IMG/VR virus record: IMGVR_UViG_2913152634_000001
DNA: 32,775 nt
Strand: one strand, 5' to 3'
Source of the DNA: a virus
Lineage: Duplodnaviria > Heunggongvirae > Uroviricota > Caudoviricetes
The translations under genes were made by a program, and so were the position numbers. Below, one piece after another: positions 1 to 24,704 of this stretch. Under the pieces are notes generated by a model. It was not told the origin of the DNA and did not search any database. It saw only the letters and a program-made list of their open reading frames with translations. How positions within the stretch are numbered: the first letter of the stretch is position 1; every line of letters starts with the position of its first letter.

Positions 1-981
1 TTATAACGTCACTCCGCCTTTTAGTGGATTCAGAGCGACGGCATTTTGCAGATAGTCAGGCGCAAGGTGCGCATAGGCCATCGTCTGCTGAATGCTCGCA
101 TGTCCCAGAATCTGTTGCAGTGCGATTATATTGCCCCCATTCATCATGAAATGGCTTGCGAATGTATGCCGCAGGATGTGGGTTGCCTGATTGGGTGGTA
201 TATCAGGTTTCACTCTGCGTAAAATCCCGCAAAATTTCTCATAATCAACTTTGAATAATTTGGCGCTGGCCTCCTCTTTAACTTTTTTCTCCAGTTCCTC
301 AGAAATCGGCACGGTTCGCTTTTTACCGTTTTTGGTTTTCAGGAAGGTAACCCTGCAATTTGTAATCTGTGCTGGTTTTAGCGTGGCAACTTCCGTCCAT
401 CTTCCTCCAGTGCTCAGACATAAAAGCGCGACAAGTAAGTCATCACCAGCCAAAACATTTAACAGTTTTTCGATTTCTGCTTTTTCCAGGAACGTCATTT
501 CAGGGTTGGCCTCCGCCAGTGGCGGCAGTCCGTGAATTGGGTGTTGCCCGGAAAATTCATCCAATTGAATTAATTTTGTGAACATGCCGGATAATCGGTA
601 CATGTCACGGTTTATCGTTGCGGCACTGATACCATCACGTAGTCGCATGGAACGATAATCCATCAAAGCCCTTTTGCTCATCCTGCTCACTGGTATATCA
701 CCTATGCCGCTGATGGTTTTGAGTAGATGATTAAACTCTTTTGTTCCATGCTCGTGGTTTTGCCCGTGATATTTCCACCAGATGTCCAGCAACTCACTCA
801 AAGTCCGGCGGTCTGCTCGCTGGCCTCCCCATTCTTTCTGACTGGCATTGGCGATTGTGTATCGCTCAAATGCTAGTGCTTCAGCTTTTCTTTCGAATTT
901 CCTGCGGATGCGTTTTCCGTCGCGACCGCGAGGTCTAATGTCCACTTCATAGCGACCATCATCGAGCTTCTTAATTGCCAT
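1..981 (-). CDS. int: P2-family tyrosine integrase (site-specific recombinase)
   Basis: ORF 1..1011 on the minus strand; C-terminal HILRHTFASHF...LGHASIQQTMAYAHLAPDY is a tyrosine-recombinase catalytic signature. Preferred start is the ATG at 979-981 (MAIKKLDDGRYEVDIRP, as I recall P2 Int begins), with GGAGGG about 7 nt upstream; the ATG at 1009-1011 has no Shine-Dalgarno. The stop codon is at 1-3, so attL lies outside the window. Confidence 0.9.
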   Translation of the reverse strand: MAIKKLDDGRYEVDIRPRGRDGKRIRRKFERKAEALAFERYTIANASQKEWGGQRADRRTLSELLDIWWKYHGQNHEHGTKEFNHLLKTISGIGDIPVSRMSKRALMDYRSMRLRDGISAATINRDMYRLSGMFTKLIQLDEFSGQHPIHGLPPLAEANPEMTFLEKAEIEKLLNVLAGDDLLVALLCLSTGGRWTEVATLKPAQITNCRVTFLKTKNGKKRTVPISEELEKKVKEEASAKLFKVDYEKFCGILRRVKPDIPPNQATHILRHTFASHFMMNGGNIIALQQILGHASIQQTMAYAHLAPDYLQNAVALNPLKGGVTL

Positions 982-1050
982 AAGAAAGCCCTCCGGCGCT
1001 GTATTCACCATCTTGGTAGCAAATGGTGAAAATGTAATCTTTATATAGAG

Positions 1051-3237: not shown

Positions 3238-3509
3238 GTATTCGTATTGAAATTGGCGAACGTTATGTCGTTACCAGTGACAGCTTTCAGTTTATTCTCC
3301 ACGAGAAAAAGAGAGCTGAAAGCGGTAAAAACGCCGGTCAGGAATGGCTGGCGGTGGTTGGTTATTACCCGAAATTAAGCCAGCTCGTTTCCGGCCTGAT
3401 GCATCACGATATTCTGACCGGAAGCGCAAAGTCTTTTGCTGATTTAAACGCGCAGGTTGAGCAACTCAGCAAGCGTTGTTCAGAGGCTTTTGGCTCATAT
3501 GGCCGTTAA
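3234..3509 (+). CDS. hypothetical early protein
   Basis: 91-aa ORF overlapping the start of A; orf83-like position in P2. Confidence 0.5.
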   Translation: MSIRIEIGERYVVTSDSFQFILHEKKRAESGKNAGQEWLAVVGYYPKLSQLVSGLMHHDILTGSAKSFADLNAQVEQLSKRCSEAFGSYGR

Positions 3510-5814
3510 AGCCTCCGGGCGTTTTGTCCCTCCGTCAGCATTTGCCGCAGGCACCGGTAAGACGTTTACCGGTGCTTATGCATGGAACGCGCCACGCGAG
3601 GCTGTCGGGCGCGAAAGACCCCTTACACGTGACGAGATGCGTCAGGTGCAAGGTGTTTTATCCACGATTAACCGCCTGCCTTACTTTTTGCGCTCGCTGT
3701 TTACTTCACGCTATGACTACATCCGGCGCAATAAAAGCCCGGTGCACGGGTTTTATTTCCTCACATCCACTTTTCAGCGTCGTTTATGGCCGCGCATTGA
3801 GCGTGTGAATCAGCGCCATGAAATGAACACCGACGCGTCGTTGCTGTTTCTGGCAGAGCGTGACCACTATGCGCGCCTGCCTGGAATGAATGACAAGGAG
3901 CTGAAAAAGTTTGCCGCCCGTATCTCATCGCAGCTTTTCATAATGTATGAGGAACTCTGCGATGCCTGGGTGGATGCGCATGGCGAGAAAGAATCACTGT
4001 TTACGGATGAGGCGCAGGCTCACCTGTATGGTCATGTTGCTGGCGCTGCACGTGCTTTCAATATTTCCCCGCTCTACTGGAAAAAATACCGTAAAGGGCA
4101 GATGACCACGAGGCAGGCATATTCTTCCATTGCCCGTCTGTTTAACGATGAGTGGTGGACTCATCAGCTTAAAGGCCAGCGTATGCGCTGGCATGAGGCG
4201 TTACTGATTGCTGTCGGGGAGGTGAATAAAGACCGTTCTCCTTATGCCAGCAAACATGCCATTCGTGATGTACGTGCACGCCGCCAGGCAAATCTGGAAT
4301 TTCTTAAATCGTGTGACCTTGAAAACAGGGAAACCGGCGAGCGCATCGACCTTATCAGTAAGGTGATGGGCAGTATTTCTAATCCTGAAATTCGCCGGAT
4401 GGAGCTGATGAACACCATTGCTGGCATTGAGCGTTACGCCGCCGCAGAGGGTGATGTGGGGATGTTTATCACGCTGACCGCGCCGTCAAAGTATCACCCG
4501 ACACGTCAGGTCGGAAAAGGCGAAAGTAAAACCGTCCAGCTAAATCACGGCTGGAACGATGAGGCATTTAATCCAAAGGATGCGCAGCGTTATCTCTGCC
4601 ATATCTGGAGCCTGATGCGCACGGCATTCAAGGATAATGATTTACAGGTCTACGGTTTGCGTGTCGTCGAGCCACACCACGACGGAACGCCGCACTGGCA
4701 TATGATGCTTTTTTGTAATCCACGCCAGCGTAACCAGATTATTGAAATCATGCGTCGCTACGCGCTCAAAGAGGATGGCGACGAAAGAGGAGCTGCGCGA
4801 AACCGTTTTCAGGCAAAACACCTTAACCGGGGCGGTGCTGCGGGGTATATCGCGAAATACATCTCAAAAAACATCGATGGCTATGCACTGGATGGTCAGC
4901 TCGATAACGATACCGGCAGGCCGCTGAAAGACACTGCCGCGGCTGTTACCGCATGGGCGTCAACGTGGCGCATTCCGCAATTTAAAACGGTTGGCCTGCC
5001 GACAATGGGGGCTTACCGTGAACTACGCAAATTGCCGCGCGGCGTCAGCATTGCTGATGAGTTTGACGAGCGCGTCGAGGCTGCACGCGCCGCCGCAGAC
5101 AGTGGTGATTTTGCGTTGTATATCAGCGCGCAGGGTGGGGCAAATGTCCCGCGCGATCGTCAGACTGTCAGGGTCGCCCGTAGCCCGTCGGATGACGTTA
5201 ACGAGTACGAGGAAGAAGTCGAGAGAGTGATCGGCATTTACGCGCCGCATCTCGGCGCGCGTCATATTCATATCACCAGAACGACGGACTGGCGCATTGT
5301 GCCGAAAGTTCCGGTCGTTGAGCCTTTGACTTTAAAAAGCGGCATCGCCGCGCCTCGGAGTCCTGTCAATAACTGTGGAAAGCTCACCGGTGGTGATACT
5401 TCGTTATCGGCTCCCACACCGACTGAGCACGCCGCAGCAGTGCTTAATCTGGTTGATGAGGGTGTCATCGAATGGAGTGACCCGGAGGTCGTGAAGGCGC
5501 TCAGGGGCGCATTAAAACACAACCTGAGAACACCAAATCGTCAGCAAAGAAACGGAAGCCCGTTAAAACCATATGAAATGGCACCATCGGCCAGACTGAC
5601 CAGGTCGGAACGAATGCAAATTACCCGTATCCGTGTTGACCTTGCTCAAAAGGGTATCAGGCCGCAGCGATGGGAGCTCGAAGTGTTGGCACGAGGCGCT
5701 ACTGTTAGTTATGAGGGACAAAATTTTGCATTCACGGATAGCCATGACTGGAGTGGTTTTGCTGAACACTTGTGTAAGTTCACAGAGATATTGCAATTGC
5801 CTCCGGATAAGTAA
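3499..5814 (+). CDS. A: replication initiation protein A (rolling-circle nicking endonuclease)
   Basis: Large early ORF; start placed at the ATG at 3499 (MAVKASGRFVPPSAFAAGTGK, as I recall P2 gpA begins), giving 771 aa. The track ORF extends upstream to 3457. Confidence 0.9.
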   Translation: MAVKASGRFVPPSAFAAGTGKTFTGAYAWNAPREAVGRERPLTRDEMRQVQGVLSTINRLPYFLRSLFTSRYDYIRRNKSPVHGFYFLTSTFQRRLWPRIERVNQRHEMNTDASLLFLAERDHYARLPGMNDKELKKFAARISSQLFIMYEELCDAWVDAHGEKESLFTDEAQAHLYGHVAGAARAFNISPLYWKKYRKGQMTTRQAYSSIARLFNDEWWTHQLKGQRMRWHEALLIAVGEVNKDRSPYASKHAIRDVRARRQANLEFLKSCDLENRETGERIDLISKVMGSISNPEIRRMELMNTIAGIERYAAAEGDVGMFITLTAPSKYHPTRQVGKGESKTVQLNHGWNDEAFNPKDAQRYLCHIWSLMRTAFKDNDLQVYGLRVVEPHHDGTPHWHMMLFCNPRQRNQIIEIMRRYALKEDGDERGAARNRFQAKHLNRGGAAGYIAKYISKNIDGYALDGQLDNDTGRPLKDTAAAVTAWASTWRIPQFKTVGLPTMGAYRELRKLPRGVSIADEFDERVEAARAAADSGDFALYISAQGGANVPRDRQTVRVARSPSDDVNEYEEEVERVIGIYAPHLGARHIHITRTTDWRIVPKVPVVEPLTLKSGIAAPRSPVNNCGKLTGGDTSLSAPTPTEHAAAVLNLVDEGVIEWSDPEVVKALRGALKHNLRTPNRQQRNGSPLKPYEMAPSARLTRSERMQITRIRVDLAQKGIRPQRWELEVLARGATVSYEGQNFAFTDSHDWSGFAEHLCKFTEILQLPPDK

Positions 5815-5828
5815 GGGGAGATTGCACT

Positions 5829-6875
5829 ATGCAAATGCAGCATCTGATGGTTGGCTATCCTAAGTACTACCAAACGGCCGATTATGCGTTGAGGCTTTCA
5901 GTGATGGCTGATATAGCAACAATGAGAATGAAGGCTCTGCACTTCTGGGATAAACACGGTATTTCTGCAGCTTCTGAAGCCTTTGGCGTGTCCTGCCGCA
6001 CGCTTTACTGGTGGCGTCAGTTACTGAACAAGGAAGGACCTGAGGGGCTAATCCCGCACAGTAAGGCACCTCTGGTGCGACGAAAAAAACACTGGCATCC
6101 CGATGTGCTGAAAGAGATTCGACGCCTCAGGACAGAGCTGCCGAACCTCGGTAAAGAGCAGATTTTTGTTCGCCTGAAGCCCTGGTGCGAACAGCGCTAT
6201 CTGGCCTGTCCGAGTGTTTCCACCATCGGCAGAATGATCGCTGCCGCACATGATAAAATGCGGATGATACCTGTGCGTCTGGGATCGCGGGGGAAGGCAC
6301 TGCTTGTCAAAAAGCGGTCTGCCAAACCCCGCAGGCCAAAGCACTACCGCCCGGTAAAGACAGGTGAGCTCATTGGGATGGACGCCATTGAGCTCAGAAT
6401 GGGCGAACTGCGTCGCTATGTCATCACCATGATCGACGAATGCAGCAATTACGCGCTGGCACTGGCTGTGCCGTCACTCAACAGTGATATCGTCAATCAC
6501 TTCTTCAGCCGCGCAGCCCGGTTGTTCCCGGTCGGTATCAGCCAGATAATCACAGATAACGGAAAAGAGTTCCTGGGAAACTTCGACAAAACGCTGCAGG
6601 AAGCCGCTATCAAACACCTCTGGACCTATCCCTACACGCCAAAAATGAACGCTATCTGTGAACGTTTTAACCGGACGTTAAGAGAGCAGTTTATTGAATT
6701 TAATGAGATTTTACTCTTTGAAGATCTGGCGCTATTTAACCAGAAGCTGGCGGAATATCTGGTGCTGTATAACAGCAAAAGACCCCACAAGGCGCTCGCA
6801 CTAATGACGCCCGTGGAATATATTTTAAAAGAGAATAAAAATTGCAATATGTGGTGGACCCATACAACACTTTGA
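5829..6875 (+). CDS. DDE integrase-core (rve) transposase-like protein with N-terminal helix-turn-helix, IS481-like architecture
   Basis: 348-aa single ORF: N-terminal helix-turn-helix-like segment (GVSCRTLYWWRQ) and a DDE triad (GMDAIE ... ITDNGKEF ... NAICERFNRTLREQF). Strong Shine-Dalgarno AAGGGGAG at 5815-5822, immediately after the A stop. Not a gene of canonical P2. Confidence 0.75.
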   Translation: MQMQHLMVGYPKYYQTADYALRLSVMADIATMRMKALHFWDKHGISAASEAFGVSCRTLYWWRQLLNKEGPEGLIPHSKAPLVRRKKHWHPDVLKEIRRLRTELPNLGKEQIFVRLKPWCEQRYLACPSVSTIGRMIAAAHDKMRMIPVRLGSRGKALLVKKRSAKPRRPKHYRPVKTGELIGMDAIELRMGELRRYVITMIDECSNYALALAVPSLNSDIVNHFFSRAARLFPVGISQIITDNGKEFLGNFDKTLQEAAIKHLWTYPYTPKMNAICERFNRTLREQFIEFNEILLFEDLALFNQKLAEYLVLYNSKRPHKALALMTPVEYILKENKNCNMWWTHTTL

Positions 6876-7118
6876 TCTTTTTGAGTAATTACCATAAAAT
6901 GCTCAGGCTACCGCTTGGGATATCCCATGGAATGCTCAGTGTATACGCTTTATGCATAGGGTATAAAGGCTGCAATTGGCAACAATTGTGCTGACATGGA
7001 GATAAACTCATGTTGAAACTAGTGAGAGTACGTCAGTACAACCGCTATCGTTTCGGACGTTGGGAGACGGTGCGTAAACACCGCCGTTCTTACCCAACAC
7101 GATGAGATGATATGCGGC

Positions 7119-8867
7119 CTAAGCGGTAGTGTCTTCTATATTCTTTTTCTCTTCATACATTTTATTAAAATGTGAAATATCTCCCATAAGTCTAAATATC
7201 TCTTTAAATTGTGTGATGTATATGTCGGGTGTTATTTCACCCATATCTGTTATGTTTATCGAATCTGAGTGTGAACCTCTATTTATATATCTATAGAAAG
7301 CCTTGAAATTACTATTGCTTTCATTTTGTGCAAGCCTGTTCAATTCATCTTGTAACTCGTTAGTTTTATGAACAAATGCAAAGTAATATTCTAAGATGTT
7401 TCTCATTGTATTAGGGATAACTACATTGTGAACTTTTCCATCTCTGGCATCCTTGAGTATTTGCCATAAAGATTGATATTCATTTTGCAAACTATCTCTG
7501 CTGATGTTAGAAAAAGAACTATGTAGGTTTTTTGTTATTCTAAAAAGCTGATAGGTGCTATTGAATTTCCTTTCTGAAATTGGAGCTAACTTTATTAGCT
7601 CATGAAAAAAATATAGATTATGAGTGAGGATTATCACTTTATTAGCAGAAGTGAAAATGTCATAGTGAATCATCGATGCTATATCATAGATATAGTTCTG
7701 AGAGAGACTTGAAATAGGATCGTCAATGACGATTAAACTGTCTCGGTTGTCGAATTCATCTGTGTTTGTTTGTCCCTTACAATATTCAATAAAATAGAGA
7801 AATGTAATGAGAGTTTTTTCACCTTCGCTAAGAGATCTATATACATTTTTACTTGGTGTATTATCTGAGCGAACTATAACGAAACTATTTTTTATGGTTG
7901 GATGTTTATCAATGTAGAAACAGGTAATGCCAAGGTTTTTTAATTTTGAGTTTATCGAGGAGATTGTTGTGTCGATATTGGATGTTTTATTTCTTAATTC
8001 CTTTATTTCATCATCAGTGTGTTTGATTTCTTTGTTAATAGAATCAATGCTTTCTTCGAGACTCTTGATAATGATGTCGTTTTCGGCTTGAATTTTCTCT
8101 AAAACCTCAAAGTCTGTATTGCGGTAGTTTCTCAATGCTCCCCAAAACTGATTTTTTATTTTATCTTGAGTAAGGTTAAATTGTTTTACCTTTTCATTAA
8201 GGTCATTAATTCTAGAGTTATATTGTTTTATGTCTTTTAGAAGAGATTCCTCAATATCTTTATCTTTATCAAGAGTTACGCTGAGTGACGGGTTTTGTAT
8301 CTTGTTATTAATTAACTCAATGTTACTTTTTAGCATTTTCTCAAGGGAAGAAATGTGAGCAAGACTAGTTTTTCTTTCTTCAATTGAGATTGCTGTACAG
8401 TCATTTAACTGTGTTTTTAGTAATTGAAGTTGTTCTTGAGTAGTTAATTCATAAATATATTTTAATTTTTCAATTGATGTTATTTTCTGAGCGTAGCTCT
8501 CATCAAAAATTTGCTCGAGCGCCTCTGTGAATTTATCATCAATGGTTTCTTTTTGACAAAAAGGGCAAATGTCGCCAACTAAATAATTTTCTTTACCTTT
8601 TTTAACCCAATCGAGATTCTGAAGCTTTTTGATTGTTTCTGATAGATAGCTATTGCTAGAATCAATGACAGGAGTCTTTAATAAATTTTCATCATCAAAA
8701 GAAATAGGGTAAGGATTATATGGAGATATTGTTTGTATGGTGGTGTTTTTATGATTCAATAACTCTCTGTAGTCAGTTAATAATTGATTTAAATCTATAT
8801 CAGGTAATCTAATAGAAGACTTTACCTTTGTGAAAAGGTTTCTTTTATTCTTAAGGTACCCTGCCAT
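7119..8867 (-). CDS. C-terminal fragment of a frameshift-split RloC/PrrC-like ABC ATPase with putative nuclease domain
   Basis: 582-aa ORF in a strongly AT-rich island. Contains CPFC (CxxC) in a Lys/Glu-rich coiled-coil-like region, ABC signature-like SLSEGEK, Walker B SLIVIDDP, H-loop IILTHN, then a C-terminal domain with RNILE (Arg-x3-Glu) and downstream His. No Walker A in this fragment. The reading frame stays open upstream of the ATG to a stop at 8988-8990. Confidence 0.7.
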   Translation of the reverse strand: MAGYLKNKRNLFTKVKSSIRLPDIDLNQLLTDYRELLNHKNTTIQTISPYNPYPISFDDENLLKTPVIDSSNSYLSETIKKLQNLDWVKKGKENYLVGDICPFCQKETIDDKFTEALEQIFDESYAQKITSIEKLKYIYELTTQEQLQLLKTQLNDCTAISIEERKTSLAHISSLEKMLKSNIELINNKIQNPSLSVTLDKDKDIEESLLKDIKQYNSRINDLNEKVKQFNLTQDKIKNQFWGALRNYRNTDFEVLEKIQAENDIIIKSLEESIDSINKEIKHTDDEIKELRNKTSNIDTTISSINSKLKNLGITCFYIDKHPTIKNSFVIVRSDNTPSKNVYRSLSEGEKTLITFLYFIEYCKGQTNTDEFDNRDSLIVIDDPISSLSQNYIYDIASMIHYDIFTSANKVIILTHNLYFFHELIKLAPISERKFNSTYQLFRITKNLHSSFSNISRDSLQNEYQSLWQILKDARDGKVHNVVIPNTMRNILEYYFAFVHKTNELQDELNRLAQNESNSNFKAFYRYINRGSHSDSINITDMGEITPDIYITQFKEIFRLMGDISHFNKMYEEKKNIEDTTA

Positions 8868-8955
8868 TAATGAGTTGACATCAGAGTTTCTTATGTATTC
8901 GGTATTTAACCATATTGATTCAGTACAACTTGTTTCTGCATCATGATTGCGGTCT

Positions 8956-9327
8956 TTAATTTTTTTGATAATTTGTTTTTGTTGCCTCTAGTTTTATTTT
9001 TAATGTTTTAACTATTTCTCTTTTCTTACTTATCTCTTTTTCGATCTCGGTATTTTCTTTGCTTAATGTAAAAATCCCTTTTTGAACATCTTTATCAAAG
9101 AAGTTGTCTTCAATGAACTTTGTATTATAAACCAATGGACGATAGTTATTAATGTTTGTGCAGCGGCAGTCCCTATAGTCATCGTCTGCTGGATTATAGA
9201 AAAAATTTGATATGGTAGATTTCCCAGCTCCGTTTTGCCCGTAAAGGATATTTATTCTTTTTTCGAGGGATATTTTCGTATATTTATTTTTGTCGTAGCT
9301 TGTTACATTTTTTAGACTAAGTTCCAT
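8956..9327 (-). CDS. N-terminal fragment (Walker A P-loop) of the same split ABC ATPase gene
   Basis: 123-aa ORF with Walker A YGQNGAGKST at residues 29-38; it ends in a homopolymer tract (7 T on the plus strand, 8960-8966) where the downstream 582-aa frame is already open. The two ORFs are in different frames, consistent with one gene split by a 1-nt indel. Confidence 0.7.
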   Translation of the reverse strand: MELSLKNVTSYDKNKYTKISLEKRINILYGQNGAGKSTISNFFYNPADDDYRDCRCTNINNYRPLVYNTKFIEDNFFDKDVQKGIFTLSKENTEIEKEISKKREIVKTLKIKLEATKTNYQKN

Positions 9328-9757: not shown

Positions 9758-10792
9758 TCAGCCGTTGTCAGTGTCCAGTGAGTAGTTTTTAAAGCGGATG
9801 ACCTCCTGACCGAGCCAGCCGTTTATCTCGCGGATCCTGTCCTGTAGCGGGATAAGCTCATTGCGGACAAAGACCTTTGCCACTTTCTCAATATCACCCA
9901 GCGACCCGACGTTCTCCGGCTTGCCGCCCATCAACTGAAAGGGGATGCGGTGCGCGTCCAGCAGGTCAGCGGCGCTGGCTTTTTTGATATTAAAAAAATC
10001 GTCCTTCGTCGCCACTTCACTGAGCGGGATAATTTTAATGCCGTCGGCTTTCCCCTGCGGGGCATAGAGAAACAGGTTTTTAAAGTTGTTGCGGCCTTTC
10101 GACTTCACCATGTTTTCGCGAAGCATTTCGATATCGTTGCGGTCCTGCACGGCATCGGTGACGTACATGATGTATCCGGCATGTGCGCCGTTTTCGTAAT
10201 ACTTGCGGCGGAACAGCGTGGCTGACTCATTCAGCCAGGCAGAGTTAAGGGCGCTGAGATATTCCGGCAGGCCGTACAGCTCCTGATTAATATCGGGCTC
10301 CAGCAGGTGAAACACGGAACCGGGCGCGAAGGCTGTCGGCTCGTTGAAGGACGGCACCCACCAGTAAACATCCTCCTCCACGCCACGGCGGGTATATTTT
10401 GCCGGTGAGGTTTCCAGTCTGATGACCTTACCGGTGGTGCTGTAACGCTTTTCCAGAAACGCATTACCGAAAACCAGAAAATCCAGCACAAAGCGGCTGA
10501 AATCCTGCTGGGAAAGCCACGGGTGCGGGATAAACGTTGAAGCCAGAATATTACGTTTGACGTAAATCGGTGAGCTGTGATGCACGGCAGCACGCAGACT
10601 TTTTGCCAGACCGGTAAAGCTGACCGGTGGCTCATACCATCTGCCGTTACTGATGCATTCGACGTAATCCAGAATGTCACGGCGGTCGAGTACCGGCACC
10701 GGTTCGCCAAAGGTGAATGCCTCCATTTTCGGGGCGCTGGCGGTCATTTTTTTTGCCGCAGGTTGCAGTGTTTTCCCTTTTTTCTTGCTCAT
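9758..10792 (-). CDS. Q: portal protein
   Basis: 344-aa minus-strand ORF; size and position match P2 gpQ; the ATG at 10790-10792 overlaps the stop of P. Confidence 0.9.
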   Translation of the reverse strand: MSKKKGKTLQPAAKKMTASAPKMEAFTFGEPVPVLDRRDILDYVECISNGRWYEPPVSFTGLAKSLRAAVHHSSPIYVKRNILASTFIPHPWLSQQDFSRFVLDFLVFGNAFLEKRYSTTGKVIRLETSPAKYTRRGVEEDVYWWVPSFNEPTAFAPGSVFHLLEPDINQELYGLPEYLSALNSAWLNESATLFRRKYYENGAHAGYIMYVTDAVQDRNDIEMLRENMVKSKGRNNFKNLFLYAPQGKADGIKIIPLSEVATKDDFFNIKKASAADLLDAHRIPFQLMGGKPENVGSLGDIEKVAKVFVRNELIPLQDRIREINGWLGQEVIRFKNYSLDTDNG

Positions 10793-24110: not shown

Positions 24111-24704
24111 ATGTTTACTAAGCGACGATTAAAAAATATTAATTGGGAGGCAAGTTCAGTGATTCTTGCTATGGTTCTCTTTATTGGAAATATATTTTAT
24201 ACGAATCATCGTGATGATATAAGCATGGAGGCTGAGAGAGACAGTATCAGAACAATGTTTGCATATGAAATCGCTAATAACCATCGCGCTCTCACTTTTC
24301 TTGATAAAACGAGAAATATTGGCTTTGACGAAAATTCGGAGCATTTTGTTGGCGAGCCTTTTGCCATTAATGTCAAATCATTAGGAGGGCCTCGCTTACA
24401 GATTGCATTAAACCAGACTGATAAAGTTTTTAAAGCCTACTTCAGTGAATTAAGTAAACTTGATAAAGAGGATGTTACTCTTCTTATGGACTATTACCAT
24501 GAGCAAAGCATCCTGCTGGAGTGTGTAAAATCTACGTTACAGAAGATGAAAAGTAGTAATGATATTAAAGTTGATATTGATGGTTACTTATTAGAAGAAC
24601 ACTTCATGAATGAGTTTAATCTTTCTAATATTTTGCTTAAACGCTATAGCCATTTGTTGTCACAACACCCAAAAAAACCTGAAACAAAAGATTTACATAA
24701 TTGA
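24111..24704 (+). CDS. orphan membrane-anchored protein in the Z/fun-position moron island
   Basis: 197-aa ORF with Shine-Dalgarno AAGGTG; one N-terminal hydrophobic helix (SSVILAMVLFIGNIFY) then a soluble domain; AT-rich relative to the flanking G and FI genes; no motif recognised. Confidence 0.7.
   Translation: MFTKRRLKNINWEASSVILAMVLFIGNIFYTNHRDDISMEAERDSIRTMFAYEIANNHRALTFLDKTRNIGFDENSEHFVGEPFAINVKSLGGPRLQIALNQTDKVFKAYFSELSKLDKEDVTLLMDYYHEQSILLECVKSTLQKMKSSNDIKVDIDGYLLEEHFMNEFNLSNILLKRYSHLLSQHPKKPETKDLHN

Follow-up and report, generated by a model that had tools for sequence, protein, structure and literature searches.

The 32,775-nucleotide (nt) window analyzed here, the whole of IMG/VR virus record IMGVR_UViG_2913152634_000001, contains a P2-like prophage whose replication gene A is interrupted near its 3' end. 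We conclude, with a probability of about 0.93, that the interrupting DNA is an intact, transposition-competent insertion sequence (IS) of the IS481 family and a sister of ISKpn28, and that it reached the 3' end of gene A recently and by simple insertion. The complete IS is 1,096 bp long and occupies positions 5771 to 6866 on the plus strand. Mobile elements of this type are ordinary and already annotated, and the insertion is a routine one that changes the end of a replication protein of the prophage. It should be recorded as a mobile element and not as phage cargo.

Ends of the element and target duplication

To set the IS ends, we aligned 13 E. coli copies with different flanks and one empty site. 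The ends in the window are common to the 13 other copies, and the termini read TGTGTAAG...CCCATACA. The left terminal inverted repeat (IRL; 5771 to 5797, plus strand) starts with TGT, and the right terminal inverted repeat (IRR; 6841 to 6866, plus strand) ends with ACA, which is TGT on the other strand. When the two ends were aligned, the repeats proved to be imperfect and about 27 and 26 bp long, with a perfect inner block of 10 bp that reads ATATTGCAAT at 5788 to 5797 in IRL and ATTGCAATAT at 6841 to 6850 in IRR. The original prediction, made from the letters of the window alone, had placed an element at 5775 to 6900 and had taken this 10-mer for its terminal repeat. The 10-mer exists, and its right copy lies where it was predicted. 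However, the left copy had been placed at 5791 to 5800, three nucleotides off, and the 10-mer is only the inner part of the terminal repeats. The predicted span gives way to 5771 to 6866, flanked by ACACT.

The ACACT target-site duplication occupies 5766 to 5770 on the left and 6867 to 6871 on the right, and the empty site of E. coli PMV-1 has a single ACACT. A search for such a duplication had been recommended, and it is present on both sides. A 5-bp duplication was also found at 13 further site clusters of the IS group. The ends may alternatively be drawn with a 6-bp duplication and an IS that starts with GTGT, the base after the duplication being always T. We prefer the 5-bp duplication and the TGT end, because TGT termini are the rule in the family and make both ends symmetric.

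Transposase and family assignment

The transposase gene (5829 to 6875, plus strand) encodes 348 amino acids (aa). As had been predicted, it is a real gene with a helix-turn-helix (HTH) domain at the N terminus (Pfam HTH_28/HTH_32) and an rve/rve_3 integrase core of the DDE (aspartate-aspartate-glutamate) type. The DDE residues are D185, D243, and E278, the last two of them at the usual spacing of 35 residues. The gene is a single long open reading frame (ORF) without a programmed frameshift, a feature that separates IS481 from IS3. The best family profile was NF033577 transpos_IS481 of NCBIfam (221.6 bits; E value, 1.5e-65; 282 of 284 profile positions). The second best, IS3, scored 98 bits against a cutoff of 160, and RefSeq names identical proteins IS481 family transposase. 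The duplications of the IS481 family span 4 to 15 bp. The element has the further features of the family, namely a length (1,096 bp) in the range of about 1 to 1.3 kb, inverted repeats starting with TGT, and a short duplication. TGT ends are a trait of the IS3 and IS481 families (bioRxiv 10.1101/2022.12.17.520857).

There is no stop codon for the transposase ORF inside the IS. In the window, the ORF ends on a TGA (6873 to 6875) that is target DNA, and in other copies the length of the annotated coding sequence depends on the flank (1,047, 1,080, 1,089, or 1,110 nt). The ORF is uninterrupted in all 23 close copies, from whose consensus the window copy departs only at position 6461, by a synonymous change. 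As judged from its sequence, the element is an active-looking IS481-family IS and is neither a relic nor a domesticated gene. We found no ISfinder name for it in the literature, and the members of its cluster carry generic names only.

Empty site, copies, and distribution

We searched 5,426 complete E. coli genomes by megablast. The central ~1.1 kb was found at 2,372 places in 1,723 of these genomes. Single genomes had as many as 39 of these places, and both chromosomes and plasmids were represented. Many copies were 99.5 to 99.8% identical, and 129 records were at least 99% identical. When the left and right flanks of the window copy were searched separately, they gave overlapping positions in 16 complete genomes that hold the same prophage. 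In E. coli PMV-1 and the 15 other genomes, the flanks are joined and contain a single ACACT; the empty-site sequence of PMV-1 reads GCTGAACACTTTGATC, with no IS. Between the right end of the IS and position 9760, the only difference between the window and PMV-1 is an additional T in a T-run. Because the flanks are contiguous in the empty site, the event was a simple insertion with a 5-bp duplication, and no cargo was brought. The near-identical places and the empty site agree with the resident IS that the original prediction had listed as one of two possibilities.

That prediction had also supposed that the IS brought or disrupted hotspot cargo. In this scenario, the IS would be one end of a composite transposon, or it would have delivered or rearranged the neighboring AAA_13 gene, which belongs to the defense-candidate family PDC-S06. 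The IS does border the known variable region that separates genes A and Q, and the adjacent defense-candidate gene is inactivated. However, the 32.8-kb window holds a single IS copy, and the flanks are contiguous in the empty-site prophage, with the one extra T as the only difference up to 9760. The inactivating frameshift arose in a homopolymer that lies about 2.1 kb away from the IS and is hence unrelated to it. We therefore regard a composite or cargo-delivering element as very unlikely. The PDC-S06 gene is hotspot cargo that is independent of the IS.

The junction between gene A and the IS occurred in none of the 5,426 complete E. coli genomes, which for these genomes gives a negative answer to the question of whether the same gene sits at this position in other P2-like prophages. 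We found the junction in the draft assembly GCA_000193975.2, which is identical to the window over 7047 of 7047 nt, and in a few read-set assemblies. These assemblies are identical over each compared stretch (3,000 to 7,047 nt) and have the same frameshift in the PDC-S06 gene. The identity and the common frameshift indicate that they represent one lineage and not independent retention. The insertion into gene A is specific to one E. coli lineage. Exact matches to the 348-aa protein were rejected as a sign of the same insertion elsewhere; some of them came from the site ACCCT/TTGACA upstream of tRNA-Asn, which by chance encodes the same two terminal residues as the window copy.

The reference P2-like phages lack the IS. 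Deposited phages lack the element as well, except for a 75% identical relative in a Klebsiella phage. This relative, in phage KpF5 (OR327748.1, 37195 to 38290), is a full-length ISKpn28-type element at the very end of the 38-kb genome, and the same record holds a second, partial match. Among representatives with one genome per species, the IS was found only in E. albertii besides E. coli, and the E. albertii contigs were fragmented and gave no usable flanks. A variant that is 92 to 93% identical and about 10 to 20 bp shorter is common on E. coli plasmids (for example, NZ_CP101212.1, 32845 to 33929), and 565 plasmid records fell in the identity band of 90 to 95%. No gene is listed under this variant in the plasmids sampled, and it may be a decayed sublineage. 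In the E. coli strains IAL7255 and IAL7252, copies of the IS immediately precede the -35 boxes of genes for tRNA-Met and tRNA-Asn. The 15 to 38 IS copies in these strains indicate that the element is expanding in some lineages.

Effect on replication gene A

Gene A of the window (3499 to 5814, plus strand) is a P2-type replication gene (Pfam Phage_GPA, 413 bits) and, by comparison with the intact protein of PMV-1, is now chimeric. The intact gene A product (gpA) of PMV-1 has 762 aa and the native C terminus AEHFDLFE. In the window, gpA instead ends in AEHLCKFTEILQLPPDK, read from the left end of the IS, and the proposal that a compact IS481-like element supplies the last codons of A was thus correct. 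The protein has lost its last 5 residues and gained 14 that are encoded by the IS. The 14-residue chimeric tail, LCKFTEILQLPPDK, and its stop codon are read from 5770 across the junction, the IS itself starting at 5771. According to the empty-site comparison, the original last codons of gene A (F, D, L, F, E, and the stop codon) now lie at 6872 to 6888 on the plus strand, cut off from the gene by the IS.

At the nucleotide level, homology with the reference P2-like phages extends only to about 45 nt short of the insertion point. With Wphi and L-413C, it ends about 60 nt before the gene A stop codon (window about 5726 to 5770 and 6872 to 6888). Homology that ends inside gene A means that the hotspot boundary is intragenic and that the last ~25 residues of gpA are exchangeable; these residues differ between Wphi and the window prophage. 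The chimeric gpA probably still works, since the C-terminal ~25 residues already vary among P2-like phages and a changed tail would be tolerated. Together, the insertion and the frameshifted defense-candidate gene mark this prophage copy as a lineage-specific derivative.

The new stop codon of gene A (TAA, 5812 to 5814) is followed by the Shine-Dalgarno sequence GGGGAG (5815 to 5820), and the transposase gene, which has the orientation of A, begins 14 nt beyond this stop, as the original reading of the sequence had it. A simple scan found no terminator-like site between A and the transposase gene. Transcription from the early promoter may plausibly extend into the transposase gene, which would then be cotranscribed with the early operon.

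The same orientation, the tight 14-nt spacing, the good Shine-Dalgarno sequence, and the gap without a terminator-like site would also suit a domesticated transposase, that is, an IS-derived phage gene kept at the end of the early operon for P2 replication or lysogeny. This was the second possibility in the original prediction, and the arrangement is indeed common to a few assemblies. However, those assemblies are one lineage, the inverted repeats are complete, and the target duplication is present. Furthermore, 16 complete genomes hold the same prophage without the IS, no complete genome has the junction, the reference P2-like phages lack the element, and hundreds of unrelated loci hold copies with 99.9% identity to that of the window. 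We consider domestication extremely improbable, and we retain the recent insertion of an intact IS.

Several observations weigh against an intact, competent IS481-family element. The score with the IS481 profile is 2.4 bits below the curated NCBI cutoff of 224. In a simple scan, the left end of the IS showed no promoter that could serve the transposase gene. Masking of the ribosome-binding site in read-through transcripts, by a left-end hairpin that pairs CCUCC with GGGG, was considered and rejected; the minimum-energy fold does contain this pairing, but its energy was no better than that of shuffled sequences (z score, -0.5). Finally, there is only one copy of the IS within the 32.8-kb window.

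A promoter-like motif beside the target sites

The right duplication in the window abuts a promoter-like motif, TTGATC-N17-TAAAAT (6872 to 6900, plus strand), which a promoter scan flagged independently. The motif overlaps the displaced last codons of gene A and points to a 31-aa ORF at 7010 to 7105. In the distinct sites that were first sampled, the right duplication was followed by TTG in 11 of 11. We obtained further sites by scanning viral and metagenome collections for the 26-nt right end, a probe that captures both the E. coli IS and ISKpn28. This yielded 87 distinct right flanks, which fell into 61 site clusters.

TTG was present at positions +6 to +8 past the right end in 32 of the 61 clusters; the background frequency was 1.5% (p = 7e-42). 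A -10-like hexamer, defined by A2 and T6, followed TTGNNN after 16 to 18 nt at 27 of the 32 TTG sites (84%, versus 16.5%; p = 7e-17). The spacing was 17 nt at 22 sites, 18 nt at 6, and 16 nt at 4, and 19 of the 32 sites had a G at the extended -10 position (-14). The full motif, TTGNNN-N16-18-TAnnnT, was found at 13 of the 14 site clusters with a confirmed duplication; the one exception has its left flank in common with a motif-bearing site. For the E. coli-type IS alone, all 10 duplication-confirmed sites had the full motif. When the left-end flanks were read outward, TTG stood at the equivalent place in none of 31 clusters. About half of the right-flank clusters lack TTG, which speaks against a strict rule. 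Most of these have no confirmed duplication, and they may be rearrangements or assembly joins. The target preference is strong but not absolute.

Several of the target sites are evidently real promoters. The predicted -10 hexamer precedes genes for tRNA-Met and tRNA-Asn by 16 and 19 nt and the co-oriented genes cvi, yhjE, pbpG, and mepK by 32 to 78 nt. Two sites inside coding sequences, in gene A and in a Rha gene, still have the full motif. Many insertions of the IS group adjoin type I toxin genes of the hok/Gef family (for example, the flanks TCTCC/TTGCCT and AGCAC/TTGCTC among many metagenome loci). Beside these genes the right end abuts TTGCNN-N17-TAACCT, plausibly the promoter of the antisense (Sok-type) RNA, and such insertions might uncouple the expression of toxin and antitoxin RNAs.

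The pattern might instead arise by selection, if the transposase reads a short TTG sequence or nothing at all and only harmless or TGA-ending insertions survive. The transposase ORF has an open right end, and a TGA is supplied directly by the target at 16 of the 32 TTG sites. Promoter-like motifs are enriched in intergenic regions, and ISKpn28 can insert within genes under selection, for example at position +91 of mgrB (PMC6101004). However, a need for the TGA stop was rejected as the cause of TTGA, because the T at +6 is invariant although the stop does not require it and because 13 of the 32 sites read TTGC, which gives no stop. The distance and the orientation are fixed to the base, with no motif on the left side. 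The enrichment of the -10 hexamer, the spread of its spacing over 16, 17, and 18 nt, and the frequent G at -14 would be unexpected if TTG alone mattered, and the full motif also occurs at the two sites in coding sequence. A purely selective origin of the pattern is therefore doubtful in our view, although it is the alternative that we take most seriously.

Because neither distance nor orientation varies and the -35/-10 signature is complete, we favor selection by the transposition machinery over survival bias. We lean toward the view that the E. coli IS and its sister ISKpn28 are promoter-targeting IS481-family elements, which would recognize the promoter directly or via sigma70/RNA polymerase bound to the -35 hexamer. 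We found no description of promoter targeting by IS481-family elements or ISKpn28 in the literature that we searched, and such an absence is no proof.

We suggest the following scheme for the insertion. The HTH and DDE transposase presumably binds the inner ATATTGCAAT block of both inverted repeats. It would then cleave at the TGT tips and join the ends to cuts staggered by 5 bp, which would give the ACACT duplication. The site in gene A was probably picked because the last A codons contain the -35/-10-like sequence TTGATC-N17-TAAAAT. The orientation is fixed, with the right end placed 5 bp upstream of the -35 hexamer and the stop codon of the transposase borrowed from TTGA. In general, the open transposase frame would run into the promoter and often end on the TGA of TTGA. 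The same scheme predicts an unannotated promoter at the very end of the P2-type gene A that would drive the small ORF of the hotspot.

The side result of wider interest is a very common enterobacterial IS group that inserts, with base precision and in one orientation, beside -35/-10 motifs, including those of tRNA and hok/sok-type promoters. If the targeting is mechanistic, it would account for the positions of these elements on plasmids that carry resistance or virulence genes. Read-through into the genes downstream and an influence on upstream promoter elements would then be predicted, and the IS group would offer a tractable gammaproteobacterial system for the study of promoter reading by a transposase. 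Insertions of the IS would then be natural promoter markers.

Comparison with known elements

The closest named relative is ISKpn28, an IS481-family element of 1,096 bp (PMC12816380). The window IS is 75% identical to ISKpn28 at the nucleotide level over the full 1,096 bp, a divergence of 25%. The 26-nt right end of ISKpn28 is identical to that of the window IS, and the left end is nearly so. The inner repeat block of ISKpn28 has been reported as ATATTGCAATT (PMC6101004), and this block is also present in the window IS. ISKpn28-type copies likewise have an open-ended ORF and lie beside TTGNNN-N17-TAnnnT, for example at hok-family loci. They differ in their hosts: ISKpn28 is found in plasmids, chromosomes, and prophages of Klebsiella pneumoniae, whereas the window IS is an element of Escherichia (E. 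coli and E. albertii). In RefSeq, the relatives with 75% identity are annotated as IS481-like element ISKpn28 family transposase, whereas the window IS has the generic name IS481 family transposase and is not called ISKpn28.

IS481 and IS1002 of Bordetella, the type members, are similar to the window IS in their organization, with a single ORF for an HTH and DDE transposase, a length of about 1 kb, TGT ends, and a short duplication. However, they are only distantly related to it in sequence. IS481 duplicates 6 bp at NCTAGN, whereas the window IS has a 5-bp duplication next to TTGNNN.

The only class of bacterial transposons with comparable promoter targeting that we found described is the Mutator-like group TnGBS/ISLre2/ISKra4. 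These elements target sites upstream of promoters, 15 to 17 bp from the -35 box, a behavior called atypical for prokaryotic elements (PMC3942029). Their transposase superfamily is unrelated, being Mutator-like and not of the rve/IS481 type. They occur mainly in Firmicutes, some are conjugative, and their distance of 15 to 17 bp differs from the abutting 5-bp duplication seen here. The window IS therefore resembles this group in its choice of target but is not a member, because its transposase is of the rve/IS481 type and not of the Mutator-like (p-MULT) type, for which a signature motif is described (PMC3942029). If the promoter targeting proposed here is true, it would be a second independent origin of this behavior in bacterial DDE transposons, besides the Mutator-like TnGBS/ISLre2.

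The geometry seen here is also known from the ISAba32 subgroup of IS1202, whose transposases are distantly related to those of IS481 and IS3 and whose ends are TGT (bioRxiv 10.1101/2022.12.17.520857). These elements insert in one orientation, 5 to 6 bp from a protein-bound XerCD site, a distance equal to the length of the duplication (bioRxiv 10.1101/2022.12.17.520857). Their target, however, is the XerCD recombination site and not a promoter. Furthermore, it is the left end that faces the site in the ISAba32 subgroup (bioRxiv 10.1101/2022.12.17.520857) and the right end in the window IS.

Prophage context and neighboring genes

The P2-like prophage makes up the content of the window. The early region contains the integrase gene (1 to 1011, minus strand), the repressor, early genes, and replication gene A. 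The variable region lies between A and the portal gene Q (9758 to 10792). The usual late genes follow beyond Q, and a host cation-efflux gene lies at the right edge of the window.

The small ORF at 7010 to 7105 (plus strand) lies outside the IS, has the Shine-Dalgarno sequence GGAG, and encodes an arginine-rich peptide of 31 aa, MLKLVRVRQYNRYRFGRWETVRKHRRSYPTR. It matches phrog_21154, of unknown function, with an E value of 1.6e-9. One public assembly has a gene call for this ORF, and RefSeq prophages have no annotation for it. In a prophage variant that matches window 6870 to 7400 at 93.8% overall, conservation of the ORF region reaches 98%. The ORF lies downstream of the promoter-like motif at 6872 to 6900 and faces the PDC-S06 gene in convergent orientation. 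It may regulate this defense candidate or act as its partner. An Rfam search of 5600 to 7300 gave only subthreshold chance matches.

The PDC-S06 gene (7119 to 9327, minus strand) encodes an AAA_13 ATPase according to Pfam, and PADLOC assigned the intact PMV-1 copy to PDC-S06 with a score of 828 bits. In the window, one extra T in the T-run at 8960 to 8966 (7 versus 6) causes a frameshift, and the gene is split into two ORFs of 123 aa and 582 aa. The identical split was found in three further public assemblies, and it is therefore a real pseudogene or a slippage variant and not a read error of the window.

The second P2 variable region, between the tail-fiber assembly gene G and the sheath gene FI, contains an ORF at 24111 to 24704 (plus strand). 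The encoded protein of 197 aa had no Pfam or PADLOC match, and it gave a full-length match to phrog_3829, a family of unknown function.

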